A stretch of 64,000 nt of DNA from an uncultured archaeon (lineage in GTDB: Archaea > Asgardarchaeota > Lokiarchaeia > Sigyniarchaeales > SOKP01): contig CAZWEM010000015.1 in assembly GCA_964632315.1 (NCBI GenBank), positions 20,521 to 84,520 on the forward strand. Reading direction: 5' to 3'. How positions within the stretch are numbered: the stretch's first letter is position 1; each line of letters begins with the position of its first letter. Below, piece by piece: positions 54,039-64,000 of this stretch. The notes under the pieces were generated by a model that was not told where the DNA came from, made no database searches, and saw only the letters and a list, made by a program, of their open reading frames with translations. Both the position numbers and the translations under genes were made by a program.

Positions 54039-57000
54039 TTATGAAATTTTTTCTTCCTTTTTCTTTTTAAATAGAAGATAAGTGAGTAGTATAAATGCTA
54101 TTATAAGAGCAATTATAAAGATGGACGGATTTTGACCTGTCATCATAAAAATATAATAAGAAATGGCAAACAATGAAGCGAAAAAGCTTAAAATTCTCCC
54201 ATACTGTCCAACAAAAATTTTCATGCGACTCATAATCCTCTGAAGCCTAAAATTCATCTTATTCATGACTTCTAATTCTTCTTCATTAAGTTGTTCTAAA
54301 GCCTTTGGATCTTCGTAATAGATCCCTAATCGAGGATCGTATACTCCTTTAAGTTTTCCTGAGCTAATCAAGGAAATCAAGTATTTTTGTATTTTTTGTT
54401 TCTTAATTTTTAATTCACTTTGTAGAAAACTTACCGTTAACATTTTGAATGCAATTGCTTTAATTGCCATTTGAACATATGCTTGAAGAATTTGCTCTTC
54501 AGAAGATTTTACTTTCTCAATAACAATCTCTTTGAATTCTTTAATAAATAATTCGAAATTCTTTATTAGATGCTTATTTTTAGTTTCAAAATTGTTTGAA
54601 AATTTGTTAAACTCTCGTATACTATAATTTATCTTTTTATTTGATTCTTTAATTGCAACTTCAATGTCTTTTTCTCTTTTTTTTATTTTTACAAATGCTT
54701 TCTTGAATTGTTCCGTTTCGATATAATCTTCTACTCGTGATTGTAGAGTTCCTAATAGTTGACTTAAATGAACTTTTTCTTTGTTTATCCTTTCCAATAA
54801 TTCAGAACGATAAGTTTCAAACTTTAATGTATCTATCCTAAGATCTATTTGCTTTACTAATTTTTCATAAATTTTATTAAAATCTTGTTTTTTCTTTACA
54901 TAGTATTCTCTTATCTCAGTTTCAAATTTTTGAATTTCATTCGTTTTATTAAATCTAATTCTAAGTTCTTCTTCTATTTTCTCTTGAGTATTTGCTATGA
55001 GATGCTCAACTCTTTCTTTCCTTGTCTTGAATGACTCAAATAATTTCTGATAAGAGTTTGTTTTACTTGAATCCTCTAGGAATTTTTGCAATGATTTCTT
55101 TAATGAGATCTCAAGGGCATCAAATTCGTTATCTATAAAATTGACTAATTCTAAGAATAAATATAAATTTGCTTCTATTTCTTTTACAGCAACTTTATTT
55201 ATTTTGAGTGTATTGCTGAGTTGATGCTGTAACTCTTTAATTTCAAGTCTTTCTGAATCTATTGAAAGATGTTCGACTCTTCTCTTAAAATCTTCCATTA
55301 ATCTATTATCAAATCCAGAAAAGTCGGAAATTCTATTTTGAATTTCAAGTAAATTTGTTCTTAAAGTTCTTTTTTTAATACAAGAATCGTGGAGTGCAAG
55401 AAATTTCCCAATTGATTCTTGAACATTTTTTAGCAGTTTCTTTTCAACAAAATTTCTTAATTCTTTGAATTTATAATAATTTTCTGTAAAAACGATAATT
55501 TGTTTCTCTCCCTCAATCAATTCCGCTTGTAATTTAGAAACTTCTATTAAATCTCTGATTCTGGGGATTATGTATTTACATTTTAAATCTATTCGGTCAG
55601 ATAACTCTTTTATACTAATTTTATCACTTTTAGTCTCGTTTGTTAGAACTGAAATTTCATCTGCTATGATTTGATTTATACTCTTTTCTCGTAATTCTTT
55701 TATATCATTCAGATATGATTCTTTAAATTTTGCCCATTGGATGATATTTATCGAACTATCATCAAATCCATCAATTATATTTTCAAGATTTTTGACTTTC
55801 TTCGAAAACTTCTTATCAACAATTTCAAAATCGTTAATCATTTTTTCAATTTCGCTTGTTACTTCATCTATACTCTTTTTCTTTGCCTGAATTAATGTGA
55901 TATCAAATTCTGATATTCTATTTTTAAATGATTGAACATTTTTTGAGATAAACTTGTCAAGGTCCTCTATCTTAACCCGATTTCTCTCTTCAACAACATT
56001 TTCTTGTAAAGACTGCCGTTCCTGCGCAATCATTTCAAGCAGATCTTCATCAACTTTTTCAATCATATCTTCTAAATGACGATATAAAGAGATTAATTTT
56101 TGACGATTCTTAATCTCCTTTTTTATAATCGTATTTAACTCCTGAATTTCCTTTCTTTCTTTTTCAAAAAGTTGATCAGATAGCATTTTAATTGCTTCTG
56201 AGGCTTGTTTAAACTTATTATCATTAATTAATGTCTCAGTATTATCTCTAATATCATTTATTTCATTTTTAGTATTTTGACTTATCAGAACTATTTTTTC
56301 TCTAGATTCATTAAAGAATTGGAAACCTGATGCGTAGTAACTAAAAGAGGAATCAAAATTCGATTTGATTTTTAACCAATTATCAATAACTGCCTTGTGT
56401 TTCTTAGTTATTTTTTTATCTTTAGATGTAATTTGCTGGGATACTTTATATATTGTCTGATCATAGGTATTGATTTTTTGGGAAATTTTCATCAAATTGC
56501 TTGTTATCAAATCAAATTTGGAGTCATCATAGCTAGATTCGAATAATTTAATTATATCATTTCCGAAAGAACTCAATTTCTTTTTTACATTCTCTTCCAA
56601 TTCAATAATCTTAGACTCTAATTCATCCAAAATCAAATGAAAGTTTCTTAATTCTTCTTTAGCATTGATTCTTTCTAGCAAGTAATTCTCAGTCTCAGCT
56701 AATCTTCTTTGTAAGGCAGAGTATAACTTGTTCCAAGTTGAAATTTCATTATTAAGTGAAGCTTGAAGATTTATGTATGTAAGATTTTCATTAAATGAAT
56801 TCTCTATATTTTCATTTAAAAAGTCAGCTTCCATCAAGCTATCTCTTATTAAATACTTTAAACGCTGACGGGCATAGTTTATTTCATCAATTAGCAGGTA
56901 AGATTCGATTTCCTCCTTTATATTCTTTATAGTGATATTTAATTCTAATGTCATGTTAAAGATATCATTTTTAATGTCCTCTAACTTTAGTTTTTCTTCA

Positions 57001-58490
57001 TAAATTTTCTCAGTATTGATTAAAGTATCTGAAATTATAATCTTTTCAAGGATGAAATCTAAGTAAAAATAATACTTTGTTTTTAACGTAAATCCTCTTT
57101 TTGTTCTAATATTTCCTTTGAAGAAATTTTTATCAATTAAATTATTGATAATTGGAATTATATCTTCTCGTAGTTTGAGGCTTTCATTTTTTCTCTTCAT
57201 CTTTTTGTATATATCTGATAAAGATACTATACTATTATCGTGAATTTGTTTATAGAATTCTCTCATGTATAATTTTTCTCTTTCTCCCAATCTGGAGAGG
57301 AAAATTTGAAATTCAGTATCATTATTGATTATTTTTAGGTTAAAAGTATAACTAAGGTTCAGATATAAAATTATTTCATCAATTCCATGAACTAAACCAA
57401 ATGAATTTTCAAGTTGCTTAACATCAATATATTCCTGTCTTTCTAATTGATTAAATAGTAATCTTTCAATGTGTTCAATAAATTTCTTCCAGATCACGCA
57501 TAAGATGATAATTAATTTAGAAATTTGGGGAAGGTATTTACTTAAGTTTGTGACATTATCTACCAATATATCTTGTAACTTCTTATTTATAAATGAATAA
57601 ATTCCAACTGGATTATAATCCAATAACCAAGAATATGCTTCTAAAACATTTACAGCCCAGAAAGTTTCATCAATCTGGCTGTCTCCTTTTTCTAAACTGA
57701 AACCACCGTCATCTTTCTGATTCTGAAGTAGAAAATCCAAATCCTTATCTCTTATTTCAGAGTCTAAATCGAGATATTTCAAGCACAAAAATTTAGTAGA
57801 GATATTCGAATCTTTTTTGAGATCTTTGATTATATTACGGTATTGATCTTGGTAGATTCGCACGTCAATTCCTATTAATGTGAAGATCTCAAAAACAAAG
57901 AATATTGTCTTTGAATACTCTTCCTTCTTGTGGCAATTTTTTTCTAAACAATGTAAATACTTATCATTTTTCTTATGAGCATTAATAAAATTTATCAACT
58001 TTCTCTCCCAAGTATCATTTAACTTTGTCAATCTATATTCTTTCAAGTTTCCTGACAAATTTAAACATGAAATTGCATAATAAGTGGACCAGATACTAGG
58101 TAATTTATCTGAATCAGGAGAAATTTTAAAAGCTAGTTGATCTCGTTCTATATATTCTACTTCACAATTTTTTATAAACTCATAGATTGCATCTTTATTG
58201 TCATCCAATTTTTCTCTTAAATACTTCTTCATCAAAAGATACCAATATAAGTCTTTTAAAGTAAATTTGGAATCGAGAAATATAGTTTCCTTTAAAGAGC
58301 TAATAAAGTCTTTGATTTTGTCGTATTCCTTTAAATAAAAACTCTTTACATTTTTGCTTGGAACTAAAGAAAATGACTTATAAGGTTCTTTTTTAAACTC
58401 TGTTATGTAAGGATAAGCAAATTTCTCTTCAACATTTGTCAATAATCGTAACCCACGAGTTATTTTTGATACTAATGAAAATAAGACCAT
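54039..58490 (-). CDS. 1483-aa protein: prenyltransferase/squalene-oxidase-repeat-like N-terminus, long coiled coils, wH/PCI-like domains, two C-terminal TM helices
   Basis: FLLQNQKDDGGF...ETFWAV and STYYAISCL repeats; heptad K/E-rich middle; LISSGKLKGVYD; C-terminal TM hairpin plus KKKK. Confidence 0.65.
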   Translation of the reverse strand: MVLFSLVSKITRGLRLLTNVEEKFAYPYITEFKKEPYKSFSLVPSKNVKSFYLKEYDKIKDFISSLKETIFLDSKFTLKDLYWYLLMKKYLREKLDDNKDAIYEFIKNCEVEYIERDQLAFKISPDSDKLPSIWSTYYAISCLNLSGNLKEYRLTKLNDTWERKLINFINAHKKNDKYLHCLEKNCHKKEEYSKTIFFVFEIFTLIGIDVRIYQDQYRNIIKDLKKDSNISTKFLCLKYLDLDSEIRDKDLDFLLQNQKDDGGFSLEKGDSQIDETFWAVNVLEAYSWLLDYNPVGIYSFINKKLQDILVDNVTNLSKYLPQISKLIIILCVIWKKFIEHIERLLFNQLERQEYIDVKQLENSFGLVHGIDEIILYLNLSYTFNLKIINNDTEFQIFLSRLGEREKLYMREFYKQIHDNSIVSLSDIYKKMKRKNESLKLREDIIPIINNLIDKNFFKGNIRTKRGFTLKTKYYFYLDFILEKIIISDTLINTEKIYEEKLKLEDIKNDIFNMTLELNITIKNIKEEIESYLLIDEINYARQRLKYLIRDSLMEADFLNENIENSFNENLTYINLQASLNNEISTWNKLYSALQRRLAETENYLLERINAKEELRNFHLILDELESKIIELEENVKKKLSSFGNDIIKLFESSYDDSKFDLITSNLMKISQKINTYDQTIYKVSQQITSKDKKITKKHKAVIDNWLKIKSNFDSSFSYYASGFQFFNESREKIVLISQNTKNEINDIRDNTETLINDNKFKQASEAIKMLSDQLFEKERKEIQELNTIIKKEIKNRQKLISLYRHLEDMIEKVDEDLLEMIAQERQSLQENVVEERNRVKIEDLDKFISKNVQSFKNRISEFDITLIQAKKKSIDEVTSEIEKMINDFEIVDKKFSKKVKNLENIIDGFDDSSINIIQWAKFKESYLNDIKELREKSINQIIADEISVLTNETKSDKISIKELSDRIDLKCKYIIPRIRDLIEVSKLQAELIEGEKQIIVFTENYYKFKELRNFVEKKLLKNVQESIGKFLALHDSCIKKRTLRTNLLEIQNRISDFSGFDNRLMEDFKRRVEHLSIDSERLEIKELQHQLSNTLKINKVAVKEIEANLYLFLELVNFIDNEFDALEISLKKSLQKFLEDSSKTNSYQKLFESFKTRKERVEHLIANTQEKIEEELRIRFNKTNEIQKFETEIREYYVKKKQDFNKIYEKLVKQIDLRIDTLKFETYRSELLERINKEKVHLSQLLGTLQSRVEDYIETEQFKKAFVKIKKREKDIEVAIKESNKKINYSIREFNKFSNNFETKNKHLIKNFELFIKEFKEIVIEKVKSSEEQILQAYVQMAIKAIAFKMLTVSFLQSELKIKKQKIQKYLISLISSGKLKGVYDPRLGIYYEDPKALEQLNEEELEVMNKMNFRLQRIMSRMKIFVGQYGRILSFFASLFAISYYIFMMTGQNPSIFIIALIIAFILLTYLLFKKKKEEKIS

Positions 58491-58615: not shown

Positions 58616-60103
58616 ATGAGTTTCTTAGCAATCGATTTAGGTACTCAAAGTATCAGAGCGGCAGTTGTAGATAAAAAAGGACAAATTAAAACCCTTTCTC
58701 AGATGTCTCAAGATGTTGATTCCCCATACCCGGGATGGGCTCAACAAATGCCTGAAATATGGTGGAAGCTTACAAAAGAAGTGATTAAACAAACTGTTCA
58801 GCAATATAAGAAAAAAAGCAAGATTAATGAAATTGAGGGAATTTGCACGTGCGGCCAGATGCATGGTCCAGTAGGAATTGATCAAAATGGGAATATTACC
58901 ACTAAATGGACTCAAATTTGGATGGATAAGCGTTCTGAAACTATTTGTCAGATGATAAGAAATAATTACGATGAAATTAAATTAGCGAAGATTTCAGGAA
59001 ATCCAATAACCACCGGATGGCCTGGAGTTAAGATAAGATGGATAAAAGACAATCAAAGAGAACTATATGAAGCCACGGAGTACTTTCTTGTCCCTAAAGA
59101 TTTTATAAATTATAGATTGACTGGAATCGCAGCAACCGATCATAGTGAAGCATCTGGAACCTATTTATACGATGTAAATGAAGAAAGATATTCAAAAACA
59201 ATGGAAAAGGTATTAGATGTCGATTTAAAGAAGTTTGCCCCCATCCATGAATCCTATGATATAATAGGAAACTTGAAACCCAATATTGCACGAGACTTGG
59301 GACTCCCTATCGAATTACCAGTGATAGCAGGTGGCGGAGATTTTATTGTTTCATTGCTTGGTATTGGCCTCGTAGATAGTTCTACTGCAGTTGATATGAC
59401 CGGTACGAGCACGTTACTCGTAGTATATAAGAATAAGCCTATTTTAGATCCAGCGATCCAAAATTTACGCCACGTGATAGGTGGATGGATTCCGTTTACT
59501 ATGCTTGATTGTGGTGGCCTTGCTATAAAATGGTGCAAAGATCTGCTAAACTCAATAAATAATATTAATCATTCTTATGAACAAATAATCAAAATTGCAA
59601 GTCAAGCACAAATAGGTAGTGAAGGATTACTTTTTTATCCATACCTATTAGGAGAAAGGAGAAAAGACAATGTTTCGGCTCGGGGAGCTTTTTTCAATTT
59701 AAGCATAACGCATCAAGCGAAACATTTTTGTCGATCGATAATGGAAGGTGTAGCTTTGGCGTTAGGCAGAGACATCGCACACTTTAGAAATCTAGGAATC
59801 GATCTCAAAAAAGTAGTTTGTTTAGGTGGAGCAACACGTAATAATTTTTTATATCAAATAAAAAGTAATGTTACGAATCTGCCACATTATATCACGAATC
59901 AACCCGAATCGAGTTTAAGTGGTTGTGGTATCCTAACTGCCTATGCTTTAGGAAAGATTGATGATTTCGAGGAAATTAAGGTGAATCATCCTTCTCTAAT
60001 TATCAAACCCGAAGACTCCGTAGTACTAAAATACAACACGATTCAAAATGAATTTAACCGCATGTATGAGCATATGTTAGGTTATTGGAATAAAAAAACT
60101 TAA
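58616..60103 (+). CDS. FGGY carbohydrate kinase (xylulokinase-like)
   Basis: IDLGTQS, GQMHG, WMDKR, PKD, GGD, GTS, PYLLGER, MEGVA. Confidence 0.92.
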   Translation: MSFLAIDLGTQSIRAAVVDKKGQIKTLSQMSQDVDSPYPGWAQQMPEIWWKLTKEVIKQTVQQYKKKSKINEIEGICTCGQMHGPVGIDQNGNITTKWTQIWMDKRSETICQMIRNNYDEIKLAKISGNPITTGWPGVKIRWIKDNQRELYEATEYFLVPKDFINYRLTGIAATDHSEASGTYLYDVNEERYSKTMEKVLDVDLKKFAPIHESYDIIGNLKPNIARDLGLPIELPVIAGGGDFIVSLLGIGLVDSSTAVDMTGTSTLLVVYKNKPILDPAIQNLRHVIGGWIPFTMLDCGGLAIKWCKDLLNSINNINHSYEQIIKIASQAQIGSEGLLFYPYLLGERRKDNVSARGAFFNLSITHQAKHFCRSIMEGVALALGRDIAHFRNLGIDLKKVVCLGGATRNNFLYQIKSNVTNLPHYITNQPESSLSGCGILTAYALGKIDDFEEIKVNHPSLIIKPEDSVVLKYNTIQNEFNRMYEHMLGYWNKKT

Positions 60104-61176
60104 AAAAAGATCTCTTTAGCTATTTGCCCAATAGGCCTAAATACTTTAAGATCTCCATCCCAATCTTTCAAAACATTACCGTATGTTTGTTCTATTTTAT
60201 CTATGAAATTTTTAAGCAGAATTTGTAGAGAGACAAGATTTTCTTCGGATATCAGAGTTCCATAGATATATTTTCCCGGATGAATGGTGATATGCTTACC
60301 CTTTTTCTCAATGAATGAGGTGGTTTCTTTTTTACTAACCGTTTCAAGCATCATTTTTAATGAAGTTAATGCGCCAGAAGTTGCTGAATCATAGTAAGTA
60401 TCTCCAGGCTTAAAAGATCTTTCGAAAATCAATAAACCAGATTTATGAATAATGAAAATACTATCGATTTTTTGTTGCCAATTATATTCTGAGAAGGATG
60501 GAATTGAAGAAAAATAAAAGTACAAAAAGAATAATGCTAGAAGTTGGAATAAGTCGCCTATCAATCTACTACCTAAACCAAATAAATTGATCGAAAAATC
60601 GATTGTTAAGCCAAACCCTATTATTAAGAGAGAAATACCAGCAAAAAGCTTTATCAGATGCTTATTATAATTTCCCAGAATAGGATTTTTTTCAAAAATT
60701 GAATTTAATTCTTTGGAGTAGTAAATAAAAAATGTTATGAAAATTGCAAAAAATATAGGTGATAAAATTTGAGTAATACTAATATCGATTAATGATAGAA
60801 TAGCAAAAAATATTAAATATATGACAAAAATTATTGAAAAGAGAAATTTTCTTTTGAAAATTTTATATTTTTCTATAATAAATATAAAAATGAATGCGCA
60901 GATTGCTAAAGACATGTATCCTAAGTTTAAACATATGATCCGGAGAGAGGAATCGACCACATAATAGTCACTAATAATGAAAAATAAGATCGTAGTTGAA
61001 TATCCTAAAAATACCCAGAAGTACGCTTTTTCCTCAAGCCTCTTAACATTTCTTTTATTTTTCACTACTTTATTCATAAATATTAGAGCTATTTCTAGTG
61101 AAAGCAAACAGATTAAACTTTCAAGAATGACTAACCACTGAGCTAGACTGCCTGTCAAGGGGAATTGTACTATCAT
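60100..61176 (-). CDS. 7-TM membrane domain fused to C-terminal longin-like domain
   Basis: Seven hydrophobic helices by eye; IFIIHKSGLLIFERSF, SGALTSL, WDGDLKVF. Confidence 0.75.
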   Translation of the reverse strand: MIVQFPLTGSLAQWLVILESLICLLSLEIALIFMNKVVKNKRNVKRLEEKAYFWVFLGYSTTILFFIISDYYVVDSSLRIICLNLGYMSLAICAFIFIFIIEKYKIFKRKFLFSIIFVIYLIFFAILSLIDISITQILSPIFFAIFITFFIYYSKELNSIFEKNPILGNYNKHLIKLFAGISLLIIGFGLTIDFSINLFGLGSRLIGDLFQLLALFFLYFYFSSIPSFSEYNWQQKIDSIFIIHKSGLLIFERSFKPGDTYYDSATSGALTSLKMMLETVSKKETTSFIEKKGKHITIHPGKYIYGTLISEENLVSLQILLKNFIDKIEQTYGNVLKDWDGDLKVFRPIGQIAKEIFF

Positions 61177-61192
61177 GTAAATATCTCGCTTT

Positions 61193-62311
61193 TTAGGATT
61201 TTATTAATAAATTATCAATTTCTTCTTTGAATTTATCAAAAATAATGTTTTCCCTTCCTTCTATAGCTTCTATATCATTCAATAGAAGTTTAAAGCGGTT
61301 TTGAAAGAGTTTTTGAAGCACTTTTAGGAAGAAAGTCATGCTAACCATATCATCATCAACAATTATACAAAATATTAGTGATTCTAAACCATTAGTTCCA
61401 TAATTGAAAATCATGATTTGATCTTCTTGATTTATCCTCTGGATTTTATCTCCCTTAGTTTTTGTAATTAAGGAGATAATACTCTCTATTCCAATCAATC
61501 CTCTTGAAAAAAAGACGTTCTTATCGGACGACGCTTCGACTATTTCACTTGATTTAGTTCTAAAATTATAATTGTAGATTAGCTTAAGTCTTTTTTTATC
61601 AATTACATAGAAACTATCCAAGTTTTCTTGCCATTTAAATTCCAAAAAAACAGGAAAATCATAAAATGCATAAAAAATGATTAATTGACCAAGTATTATC
61701 AATGGAGTAAAAACATTTCTCGCCAATAACTGACCCTCAGGAGTAAATAAATACGGATCTTTCTCTGTTCCGAAAACAATACCAATAACTACCAATAATT
61801 CCCCTATAAATAAGATAAGTATTCTTACCTTAACGTTTCCAGTTGCATTTTGAATTAAAATCACGTGAAAGTATATCATAAAAATTACACCAATTAGTAT
61901 TGAAGAAAAGATAACAAGATTTTTCAATACCTCATCTTCAATCAGCATAATCAAAATCGAAGCTACAAAAGCGATTATGATTATGATTCTAATAATTGTA
62001 CTATTTAACAAGCTCTTGAAATCTTTTAAAGAGATTATCAGTAGAAATGATATAGCAGCAATAGAGATTAATATATGAGAGGCATTATTTAGAATAATAT
62101 TGAATGCTAAATCATTTACGAAATAACTATTAAAAGCTCTTACTACAATTCCAGTAAATCCAAATCCATATAACAATCCAAATGCTATAAGAAATTTATT
62201 TAATCCTAGATTTTCCTTTCTGATTTGATAATATTTATAGAATAAATAAAAACACATTTGATAAGTTAATGCTAGGATAATGAACAACAGCGGTAGATAA
62301 AAATCTATCAT
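61193..62311 (-). CDS. 7-TM membrane domain fused to C-terminal longin-like domain (paralog)
   Basis: Seven hydrophobic helices; P.F.EF.WQ linker shared with the neighbour; FYVID...LIYNYNF, SRGLIGIESII. Confidence 0.7.
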   Translation of the reverse strand: MIDFYLPLLFIILALTYQMCFYLFYKYYQIRKENLGLNKFLIAFGLLYGFGFTGIVVRAFNSYFVNDLAFNIILNNASHILISIAAISFLLIISLKDFKSLLNSTIIRIIIIIAFVASILIMLIEDEVLKNLVIFSSILIGVIFMIYFHVILIQNATGNVKVRILILFIGELLVVIGIVFGTEKDPYLFTPEGQLLARNVFTPLIILGQLIIFYAFYDFPVFLEFKWQENLDSFYVIDKKRLKLIYNYNFRTKSSEIVEASSDKNVFFSRGLIGIESIISLITKTKGDKIQRINQEDQIMIFNYGTNGLESLIFCIIVDDDMVSMTFFLKVLQKLFQNRFKLLLNDIEAIEGRENIIFDKFKEEIDNLLIKS

Positions 62312-62487
62312 GACTTAGGTCAATTATAATTATACGACTTAATAAATTTTATTTAATACGCAATTTAATCATCTATTTTTTTTTTGTACACAAAAGTTTT
62401 TCTAATAAAGGTTAAAATATAGTTGCGTTATTAATTATAAAGTATATTCTATCCAAAATTATCATTTTTTAGTTTGAGGGGTTTAAC

Positions 62488-63021
62488 ATCTCAATAGATC
62501 TTGCTTTTAAAATTTGCGTTTTTGGAGATTCGGGTGTGGGTAAAACCTCTCTTATTTCTCGTTTTTTGACAAAAGGTTTCGACCCAAATATTGGACAGTC
62601 AATGGGAGTTGATATTAGAGCAAAAACAATGGATATTCAAAATTTAAAGGTAAACCTCCAAATTTGGGATTTTGTTGGTCAAATTGAATTTCGGAATGTT
62701 CTTTTAAATTACGCGAGAGGAGCTGGCGGGGGTATCTTTGTGTATGATATCACTAATAGCTCCAGCATGGAAAATATCAATCAATGGCTTGGGTTATTCA
62801 AAGAAAAATTAGCTGAATGGAAAAAAATTCCTATAATTATCGCAGGAAATAAGTCTGATCTCTCTGCTGAAAGAGAGGTGTCATCTGAAGATGTATTCAA
62901 AATTTCGGAAGATCACGTAATACATGAATTTTTAGAATGTTCGGCTAAATCTGGATTTAATGTAGAGAAGTTGTTTAGTAACCTATGTATAGAAATAATG
63001 CGTCGATCTAATTTTATGTGA
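62488..63021 (+). CDS. Rab/Ras-like small GTPase; probable ATC start at 62488
   Basis: FKICVFGDSGVGKT (upstream of track GTG 62536), WDFVGQ, NKSD, ECSAK; GAGGGG SD; in-frame TAG at 62470-62472. Confidence 0.92.
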   Translation: MSIDLAFKICVFGDSGVGKTSLISRFLTKGFDPNIGQSMGVDIRAKTMDIQNLKVNLQIWDFVGQIEFRNVLLNYARGAGGGIFVYDITNSSSMENINQWLGLFKEKLAEWKKIPIIIAGNKSDLSAEREVSSEDVFKISEDHVIHEFLECSAKSGFNVEKLFSNLCIEIMRRSNFM

Positions 63022-63191
63022 CTTATAAATTGAAGATAACAAAAAAGCAAAAAAATGGTCTAAGATTTTACAAAATCGAACTGAGTAGTAAATCAATTGT
63101 CTAATTCGATATTCCTAAAGCTTAATGCTTGTGAAGATAATTAATTATTTCAATCACATAAAAAGGAGTAAAAAATAAAAAAAGTTTAAAT

Positions 63192-64000
63192 TTATAGTTC
63201 CAGTCTACTGGATGGTTTCATGAAATCTGATTCTATAGGCTTTTCAACGATGTCCAACAAGTTATACTCCGTGATCATTTGCAGCACGCCCATGACTTTC
63301 ATGCCATGCTCGTATTGCTCATTCGCGTCAGTTAAATTTCTCCAGCAAAATGGGCATTCGGTTGTAAGAATATCAGCACCAACTGCATCTGCTTCGTCAC
63401 ATCTTAGACTTGCCGTGCGTATTGAGAAATCAGGATATCCTGCTCTGACACCTCCTCCCGCACCACAGCACATGCTGTTTAACTTTATCCGATACATCTC
63501 CTTGAATTTAATGCCCACATCTTCTTCAAGCTTTCTAAGGATTACTCGTGGAATCTCAAACCATTCATCAATCACTCGATCTATCTTTCGCATATCGAAC
63601 ATGAGATTTTTCGAGTTTTTAATCATTTCCTGCTCCATATCTATAGCAAAGTGACGCCCAGTATGACAAGGATCGTGATAGGTCACGACTTTTCCTTTTA
63701 ATTCCTTATTTGGCTTGAATTTAATTTCTCCCTTGAAATCCTTGATCTCTTCCAATTCAGCTTTTAAGCTTTTTATTTGACTCTGAATGTATTTATCATT
63801 AGGTTTTTCTTTTAACTTTGCCTCAAGCTCCGAGATTTCTTTTGGTATTTCCTTTTTTCTTTTTGGAATCTCGATCAATGAAGAAACTAATTCGAATGCG
63901 TGTTTGGTCTTGAATGGTAATTTTTCTCCTTCAGCCATCCATTTAGGATAATCAATCGTGAAAGTTCGGTAACAACCAGCACATGAGAAATATACCATCT
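63192..64000 (-). CDS. HdrD-like CCG-domain Fe-S oxidoreductase, 5' end outside the window
   Basis: SCAGC, TYHDPCH.GR, CCGAGGG, ECPFC. Confidence 0.88.
   Translation of the reverse strand, partial: MVYFSCAGCYRTFTIDYPKWMAEGEKLPFKTKHAFELVSSLIEIPKRKKEIPKEISELEAKLKEKPNDKYIQSQIKSLKAELEEIKDFKGEIKFKPNKELKGKVVTYHDPCHTGRHFAIDMEQEMIKNSKNLMFDMRKIDRVIDEWFEIPRVILRKLEEDVGIKFKEMYRIKLNSMCCGAGGGVRAGYPDFSIRTASLRCDEADAVGADILTTECPFCWRNLTDANEQYEHGMKVMGVLQMITEYNLLDIVEKPIESDFMKPSSRLEL

Follow-up and report, generated by a model that had tools for sequence, protein, structure and literature searches.

A tandem pair of seven-transmembrane longin proteins encoded next to a Rab-like GTPase in Asgard archaea

Introduction

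The genomes of Asgard archaea contain dozens of genes for GTPases of the Rab-, Arf-, and Rag-like types, and their longin and roadblock proteins also number in the dozens. To our knowledge, neither the matching of regulators to GTPases nor the route by which GTPases devoid of a lipid anchor reach the membrane has been established in these organisms. Both questions are raised by a locus in a 64,000-nucleotide (nt) stretch of DNA, referred to here as the window, from an uncultured archaeon of the class Lokiarchaeia (GenBank assembly GCA_964632315.1, contig CAZWEM010000015.1, positions 20,521 to 84,520). In this locus, two adjacent genes for proteins with seven transmembrane (7TM) helices and a C-terminal longin domain, subunit B (upstream) and subunit A (downstream), are transcribed divergently from the gene for a Rab-like small GTPase (Table 1). 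The initial annotation, made from the DNA letters alone, interpreted the trio as a heterodimeric membrane sensor that controls nucleotide exchange on the neighboring GTPase. Do the two membrane longins serve this GTPase and, if so, in what capacity?

In MK-D1, gene layout was of little help for matching GTPases to regulators, and transmembrane longins were not mentioned (Tran et al. 2024, PMC10933270). For Loki GTPases, operon analysis was named as an outstanding question (Dey et al. 2016, PMC4917890), and a different conserved Asgard operon, which combines LAMTOR1-like, Rab-like, and DENN genes, has been described (Liu et al., bioRxiv 10.1101/2020.10.19.343400). A full-text search of the literature returned no description of the 7TM-longin architecture or of a 7TM-longin-GTPase module in Asgard archaea.

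Architecture and topology of the membrane subunits

Subunits A and B show 29% identity in BLASTP (E value of 1e-7), and the profiles of the A and B families align in hhalign over 346 columns with a probability of 99.4% (E value of 1.6e-21), indicating that the two proteins are paralogs along their whole length. Their genes are separated by 16 nt. AlphaFold2 models, built from 26 homologs for A and 40 homologs for B, have mean confidence (pLDDT) values of 81 and 85, respectively. In both, a beta-beta-alpha-beta-beta-beta-alpha-alpha domain comes after seven transmembrane (TM) helices; the elements of this domain in A are E237-244, E249-254, H263-280, E287-291, E294-300, E304-310, H315-337, and H343-357 (E, strand; H, helix), with equivalent elements in B. 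The loops carry 15 Lys and Arg residues inside versus 2 outside in A and 7 versus 3 in B. These charges obey the positive-inside rule and thus place the N terminus outside and the C-terminal domain in the cytoplasm in both subunits. The initial description of the pair as tandem paralogs with seven helices each and a cytoplasmic C terminus agrees with the open reading frames (ORFs), the alignments, the models, and the loop charges.

The linker motif that the initial annotation saw in both proteins is a PxFxE..W junction (PSFSEYNWQQKIDS in A and PVFLEFKWQENLDS in B). No other element of the family is better conserved, the Glu and Trp residues being invariant in 54 members, and in the model of A it forms a short helix immediately ahead of strand 1. 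Pfam searches with full-length A and B gave no match at E values up to 1, and an ESM Atlas search retrieved only unnamed archaeal clusters.

The longin domains

Each subunit contains a single longin domain, located C-terminally to its 7TM bundle. The assignment, already made in the initial annotation, is borne out by fold as well as by sequence profile. In VIA-align comparisons, the domain of A matches VAMP7 with a Z score of 13.6 (root mean square deviation [rmsd] of 2.4 over 116 residues), Sec22 with 13.5, and the sigma subunits of adaptor protein (AP) complexes with 12.3 to 12.7; synbindin, sedlin, Trs23, and Mon1-Ccz1 are further fold matches, and the solved Lokiarchaeota Roadblock-Longin protein (PDB ID 8yqg) is matched with a Z score of 11.2. 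The domain of B matches BLOC-3 (Z score of 12.3), CPLANE (12.2), Mon1-Ccz1 (11.4 to 11.6), and Bet5 (11.4). Foldseek gives roadblock structures a template modeling score (TM-score) of ~0.5 with an rmsd of 4.7, compared to 0.63 to 0.73 and 2.8 to 2.9 for longin structures, so that a roadblock/MglB assignment is the weaker one.

At the sequence level, the longins of A and B appear to be homologous to those of TRAPP. A longin-only profile of 54 members, searched against PDB sequences, retrieves TRAPP Bet5 with E values of 5.1e-5 and 1.1e-4, Trs23 with an E value of 0.01, and TRAPPC1 with an E value of 0.03. When single members are compared to Pfam, Sybindin (PF04099) is the commonest match (7 of 54), with a best E value of 2.8e-4 that is under the curated threshold. 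No Lys or Arg residue occupies 85% or more of any column of the longin region in 47 upstream-type and 48 downstream-type sequences. A DENN domain is not detected by Pfam in either A or B.

The 7TM bundles

The closest fold matches of the TM bundles are adhesion and class C (GABA-B) G-protein-coupled receptors (GPCRs), with Z scores of 13.2 to 14.3 (13.2 for A versus CD97); ACER3 (13.1 for A), AdipoR2, and rhodopsins also match, with Z scores of 11 to 13. Helical bundles in general reach values like those of the GPCR matches, so that the claim is limited to a 7TM architecture. Neither Pfam nor ESM Atlas revealed similarity of the TM domain to known transporter or enzyme families. A TM-only profile search retrieved full-length 7TM-longin proteins plus two short proteins (170 and 251 amino acids [aa]) from small contigs, and nothing else.

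Subunit A contains several conserved polar and charged residues within the membrane. E19 and E28 (both in TM1), E102, R204, and Q211 are conserved in at least 85% of 48 downstream-type sequences, and D70, R79, N84, and D208 are conserved among a closer set of 26 A-type sequences. The conservation of E19, E28, R204, and Q211 argues against a passive membrane anchor. B has few conserved intramembrane charged residues. Two enzymatic or photoreceptive assignments of the bundle were considered and rejected: a CREST hydrolase, since there is no conserved His cluster, and a rhodopsin, since no retinal-binding Lys is conserved in TM7.

Phyletic distribution and pairing

Named homologs come exclusively from metagenome-assembled genomes of Asgard archaea, with Promethearchaeota/Lokiarchaeota, Hermodarchaeota, and Odinarchaeota labels. 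A phmmer search gives 214 representatives at 50% identity. A profile search finds the family in 338 of 400 genomes of the phylum at an E value of 1e-5, weak and partial matches included; strong matches are patchy, even inside the genus to which the window belongs.

The tree includes 103 family genes from the window's class, each of them located in a tandem pair or in an array of such pairs; singleton genes are found only in distant families. The gene tree has a deep split into upstream-type (B) and downstream-type (A) clades, whose subclades mirror each other, and the pairwise identities of the partners are correlated (mirror-tree r = 0.88, versus a maximum of 0.22 after shuffling). The two subunits have thus co-evolved as a pair that arose once and was later duplicated as a unit. 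An obligate A/B heterodimer would be expected to leave such a pattern, which argues for a complex of this kind and lends indirect support to the heterodimer suggested in the initial annotation.

One genome (G128) carries an array of three tandem pairs at one locus (L020, 4948-13578) and of two at another (L019, 5419-11363), each array being flanked by genes for two closely related GTPases.

Linkage to the GTPase

A total of 54 loci were examined, among them 13 orthologous loci (identity of A, 37 to 59%) and 40 further, paralogous loci picked blind to their neighbors. In the orthologous group, the GTPase gene is divergent from B at 11 loci and convergent downstream at 1, and the last locus lies at a contig end; the trio is retained in all 12 evaluable cases. 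The orthologous loci do not keep the other neighbors found in the window, namely, the genes for an FGGY kinase, a CCG-domain protein, and a giant coiled-coil protein. A GTPase gene also adjoins the pair in 10 of the 40 paralogous loci, where it is co-directional (upstream or downstream), convergent, or divergent; at two of the ten, two or three pairs form an array that comes with two GTPases.

Clustering of the ORFs within 3 kb shows that the GTPase is the sole recurrent neighbor, present at 24 loci compared to at most 5 for any other family. GTPases account for ~2% of the ORFs in the window's genome (66 tblastn matches and 81 hidden Markov model matches; 4,533 ORFs). Of the 25 linked GTPases, 17, including that of the window, group in one dedicated clade of the GTPase tree (SH-aLRT branch support of 91), in which all four gene orders occur. 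The linkage anticipated by the initial annotation is therefore recurrent, specific, and not tied to one arrangement. It is a property of certain lineages only, and membrane-embedded longins are a broad theme in the window's genome.

The Rab-like GTPase

The closest PDB sequences to the GTPase are Rab10, Rab1A, and Rab8A, with E values of ~1e-35 (best, 1.6e-35), and the top 60 matches are all Rab, Ypt, or Sec4 proteins. It contains the G1 motif GDSGVGKT, switch I SMGVD, the G3 motif DFVGQ, the G4 motif NKSD, and the G5 motif SAK. Its C terminus, ...EIMRRSNFM, has no Cys and hence does not fit a prenylation motif. The Rab-like character and the missing prenylation Cys were both correctly recognized in the initial annotation, as was the divergent gap, then estimated at ~175 nt. 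Among the orthologs, NKxD is often replaced by GKxD, and the switch I Thr alternates with Ser.

The reading frame of the GTPase is open from 62473 to 63021 (+), and there is no ATG, GTG, or TTG codon ahead of the P-loop; a start at the first GTG (62536) would leave the P-loop incomplete. Of 13 GTPase orthologs, 11 likewise have no canonical start. Their common pattern is GAGGGG, 6 nt, ATA/ATT/ATC, and then TCA. An AT[ACT] codon is found at the equivalent position in 12 of the 13 (ATA in 5, ATT in 5, and ATC in 2) and is the sole possible start in 11. The missing canonical start and the ortholog pattern together assign the start to the ATC codon, which sets the length of the gap given in Table 1. 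An assembly error in the 5' region of the gene is unlikely, because it is reproduced in contigs from three independent salt-marsh studies, two of them exact and the third with one unlocated difference in 362 nt. The non-canonical AUH start (H, A, C, or U) suggests that translation of the GTPase is kept deliberately weak relative to that of its membrane partners.

Rfam searches of positions 59900 to 63300 gave no match. A sigma-70 promoter and terminator scan produced signals at or below the level of shuffled sequence; the sigma-70 model is not applicable to archaea.

Candidate mechanism and alternatives

We propose that A and B associate via their cytoplasmic longin domains into a heterodimer embedded in the membrane. 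Such a platform would be akin to TRAPP Bet5-Trs23, or to the first longin domains in Mon1-Ccz1, with the difference that two 7TM bundles would build it into the membrane. On the cytoplasmic side, it may dock the neighboring Rab-like GTPase, itself devoid of a lipid anchor, and control the nucleotide state of that GTPase, the likeliest role of the platform being that of a recruiter and guanine nucleotide exchange factor (GEF). The 7TM bundles would set the location of the complex and may relay an input (a ligand, ion, or lipid) through the PxFxE..W junction helix.

The role of a GEF and recruiter appears likeliest because the GEF longins of TRAPP are the only solved relatives detectable by sequence, because the best fold matches of B are Rab-GEF longins, and because no Arg or Lys suited to act as the finger of a GTPase-activating protein (GAP) is conserved in the longin domain of either subunit. 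Glu at the position of the catalytic Gln in most GTPase orthologs and the possible action of longins as effectors temper this assessment. With these taken into account, a direct partnership of the 7TM-longin pair with the GTPase seems moderately probable, and GEF activity specifically is offered only tentatively. The most elaborate version, in which a ligand- or ion-gated 7TM heterodimer directly catalyzes exchange on its dedicated Rab-like GTPase via fused TRAPP-type longins, and so both activates it and tethers it to the membrane in place of a lipid anchor, is speculative and, on balance, unlikely.

Several observations weigh against the proposed partnership or against exchange as its purpose. 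Longins also act as GAPs, as effectors (SRX-SRbeta), or in roles unrelated to GTPases (SNAREs and adaptor sigma subunits), and the best fold matches of A are the longins of SNAREs and adaptors. In most orthologs of the GTPase, the catalytic Gln of switch II is replaced by Glu (DFVGE or DFGGE), which would suit a GAP-dependent switch; the GTPase of the window keeps the Gln. A GTPase gene is missing next to about two thirds of the paralogous pairs sampled, as it is next to a second pair in the same genome (C1:41153-43306). None of the 8 loci of distant Asgard families (9 family genes) has an adjacent GTPase, and at least 7 other multi-TM longin genes in the window's genome all lie more than 2.5 kb from any GTPase gene. 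Among the family matches, there is no 7TM-longin-GTPase fusion, all listed lengths being at most 421 aa.

The best-surviving alternative, although likewise unlikely, is that the longin pair serves as an effector or anchor that binds the GTP-bound GTPase in the way that SRX of SR-alpha binds SR-beta, and that the GTPase switches an activity of the 7TM part (transport, lipid handling, or signaling). Gene linkage is equally compatible with this possibility and with exchange. SRX chains are among the fold matches (Z scores of 10.7 to 11.3 for A and 10.3 for B), and the intramembrane charges of A (E19, E28, R204, and D208) are of the kind seen in transporters and channels. However, the TM domain is unlike known transporter or enzyme families and conserves neither a catalytic His nor a retinal Lys, and the nearest solved sequence relatives of the longins, TRAPP Bet5 and Trs23, belong to a GEF.

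Slightly less probable still is the absence of any direct link, in which case the membrane-anchored longins would have a GTPase-independent role (as an adaptor, a tether, or a regulator of something else) and adjacency would reflect co-regulation or inherited gene order. The pairs and multi-TM longin genes with no GTPase neighbor listed above fit this interpretation, as does the single-contig genome G135, whose one pair has no adjacent GTPase. As a rule, moreover, the GTPase genes of MK-D1 do not share an operon with longin genes (Tran et al. 2024, PMC10933270). Against it, the adjacency recurs in at least 7 lineages and in four gene orders, mostly with a single GTPase clade, and the GTPase is the only recurrent neighbor despite its small share of the ORFs.

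A GAP role, in which the pair would speed GTP hydrolysis as MglB does on MglA or as do GATOR1, FLCN-FNIP, and C9orf72-SMCR8, is improbable: the Gln-to-Glu replacement (WDFVGE) and the frequent GKxD motif of the orthologs suggest weak intrinsic hydrolysis in need of help, and MglB chains appear among the Foldseek matches, but these rank below the longin matches, the lack of conserved Arg or Lys residues argues against an Arg finger, and there is no DENN domain.

Under the preferred recruiter and exchange factor proposal, the locus singles out a specific trio, two integral-membrane homologs of the TRAPP GEF core and a co-inherited Rab-like GTPase, as a directly testable candidate. If the partnership is real, control of Rab-like switches by longin platforms at the membrane predates eukaryotes, and the first membrane anchor was the regulator rather than the GTPase. 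If the pair is, in addition, a receptor-GEF, it would represent a pre-eukaryotic solution to the membrane targeting of Rab proteins and, with its parts drawn from membrane trafficking, an archaeal counterpart of GPCR logic.

Other membrane longins and neighboring genes

The gene for subunit A overlaps by 4 nt, at the stop codons, with a convergent FGGY kinase gene (58616-60103, +). Two genes from the module, positions 54039 to 58490 (-) encode a 1,483-aa protein that is mostly coiled coil and has a hydrophobic C-terminal tail.

The second pair of this genome is flanked by genes for orotidine monophosphate decarboxylase and an aldo-keto reductase. Its orthologs elsewhere (L048 to L050) have an upstream GTPase from the same clade as that of the window.

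Among the further multi-TM longins of the genome (Table 1) are proteins of 530 aa and 736 aa, a distant tandem pair (C4), and a reversed form in which the longin precedes six TM helices. At C10, the 7TM and longin parts are split between two genes, with no GTPase nearby. Membrane-embedded longins look like a large family, of which we found no description.

A further cassette of the genome (C14) encodes stand-alone 7TM proteins next to a GTPase. In hhalign comparisons with the TM profile of the family, the two 7TM proteins of its 7TM-7TM-GTPase segment (60116-63192) reached probabilities of only 0.1% and 0.8% and thus showed no detectable homology, in a comparison whose sensitivity was low because the template was a single sequence. 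Comparison of the split C10 pair and of a stand-alone 7TM protein on C14 with the family gave weak matches, with probabilities of 14% and 51%. The 6TM-GTPase-x-6TM layout at C1:142122-145384 resembles the C14 cassette.

Table 1. Coordinates of the 7TM-longin pair, the GTPase gene, and related loci (positions without a prefix refer to the window; prefixed positions refer to other loci of the same genome)
Feature	Position	Strand	Description
Subunit A (downstream type)	60100..61176	-	ORF, 358 aa; 7TM residues 10-224, longin residues 237-358
Subunit B (upstream type)	61193..62311	-	ORF, 372 aa; 7TM residues 2-216, longin residues 231-371
7TM domain of A	60502..61176	-	AlphaFold2 model
Longin domain of A, residues 226-358	60103..60501	-	AlphaFold2 topology and longin-only profile
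Junction motif of A, PSFSEYNW	60478..60501	-	E230 and W233 invariant
Junction motif of B, PVFLEFKW	61631..61654	-	E224 and W227 invariant
Divergent intergenic region	62312..62487	.	176 nt, AT-rich; holds GAGGGG ribosome-binding motif (62476-62481)
Rab-like small GTPase	62488..63021	+	177 aa, ATC start; Pfam Ras, E value of 2e-40
Further multi-TM longin genes and the split 7TM + longin pair (C10)	C30:19226-20815, C18:46126-48333, C4:126236-128587, C30:12370-13665, C3:133829-135121, C88:3128-3928, C10:51496-52737		
Separate-gene 7TM-GTPase cassette	C14:59245-63192		Four co-directional genes: 272-aa soluble protein, 7TM (295 aa), 7TM (273 aa), GTPase (196 aa)

Comparison with known systems

The closest counterpart of the A/B pair is Bet5-Trs23 (TRAPPC1-TRAPPC4) of TRAPP, the GEF of Rab1/Ypt1. 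It has the longin fold and is the only solved family matched by the sequence profile, its partner GTPase is of the Rab type, and two paralogous longins act together in it, as they probably do in A/B. In contrast to A/B, TRAPP is soluble and multi-subunit, has no TM domain, and needs Bet3-family subunits. Genes for Bet3/V4R (TRAPPC3/5/6-type) proteins are not recurrent beside the A/B pairs in the neighborhoods of the ~54 loci, to which this search was confined.

Mon1-Ccz1 (acting on Rab7), the Hps1-Hps4 complex BLOC-3 (Rab32/38), and Fuzzy-Inturned of CPLANE are likewise heterodimers of paralogous longin proteins and are the best structural matches of B. In these tri-longin Rab GEFs, each subunit contains three longin domains, and attachment to the membrane is peripheral, via lipids and partners, whereas A and B each combine one longin with a 7TM bundle.

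The MglA-MglB system and the actinobacterial conservon (CvnA-D) also place a gene for a Ras-superfamily GTPase beside one for a member of the roadblock/longin superfamily, and the conservon adds a membrane sensor. However, they use the roadblock fold in place of the longin fold, and MglB acts as a GAP. In addition, the conservon consists of a separate histidine-kinase-like sensor (CvnA), a roadblock protein (CvnB), a DUF742 protein (CvnC), and the GTPase (CvnD). Except for the GTPase, none of its components is recurrent beside the A/B pair, which in the window is flanked by genes for the FGGY kinase and the CCG-domain protein. The longin-containing GAP complexes GATOR1 (NPRL2/3), FLCN-FNIP, and C9orf72-SMCR8 differ from A/B in having a conserved Arg finger on the longin and, usually, a DENN module.

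As in the heterotrimeric G-protein pathway of GPCRs and in the lysosomal sensors of Rag-Ragulator, SLC38A9 and LYCHOS (GPR155), a multi-pass protein would control a GTPase from its cytoplasmic side. The resemblance to GPCRs extends to the seven TM helices with the N terminus outside and the C terminus inside. Unlike GPCRs, A and B have no sequence relation to the Pfam 7TM families, their putative coupling element is a fused longin, and the GTPase is small, monomeric, and Rab-like.

Within the Asgard archaea, the operon of LAMTOR1-like, Rab-like, and DENN genes similarly keeps a longin/roadblock gene and a small GTPase gene together. Unlike the separate-gene cassette at C14:60116-63192, the A/B locus encodes the longin and the 7TM bundle in one polypeptide, has two paralogous copies of it, and pairs them with a GTPase of the Rab type. 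The module is a fused variant of the longin/7TM/GTPase cassette theme, equipped with a Rab-like GTPase.

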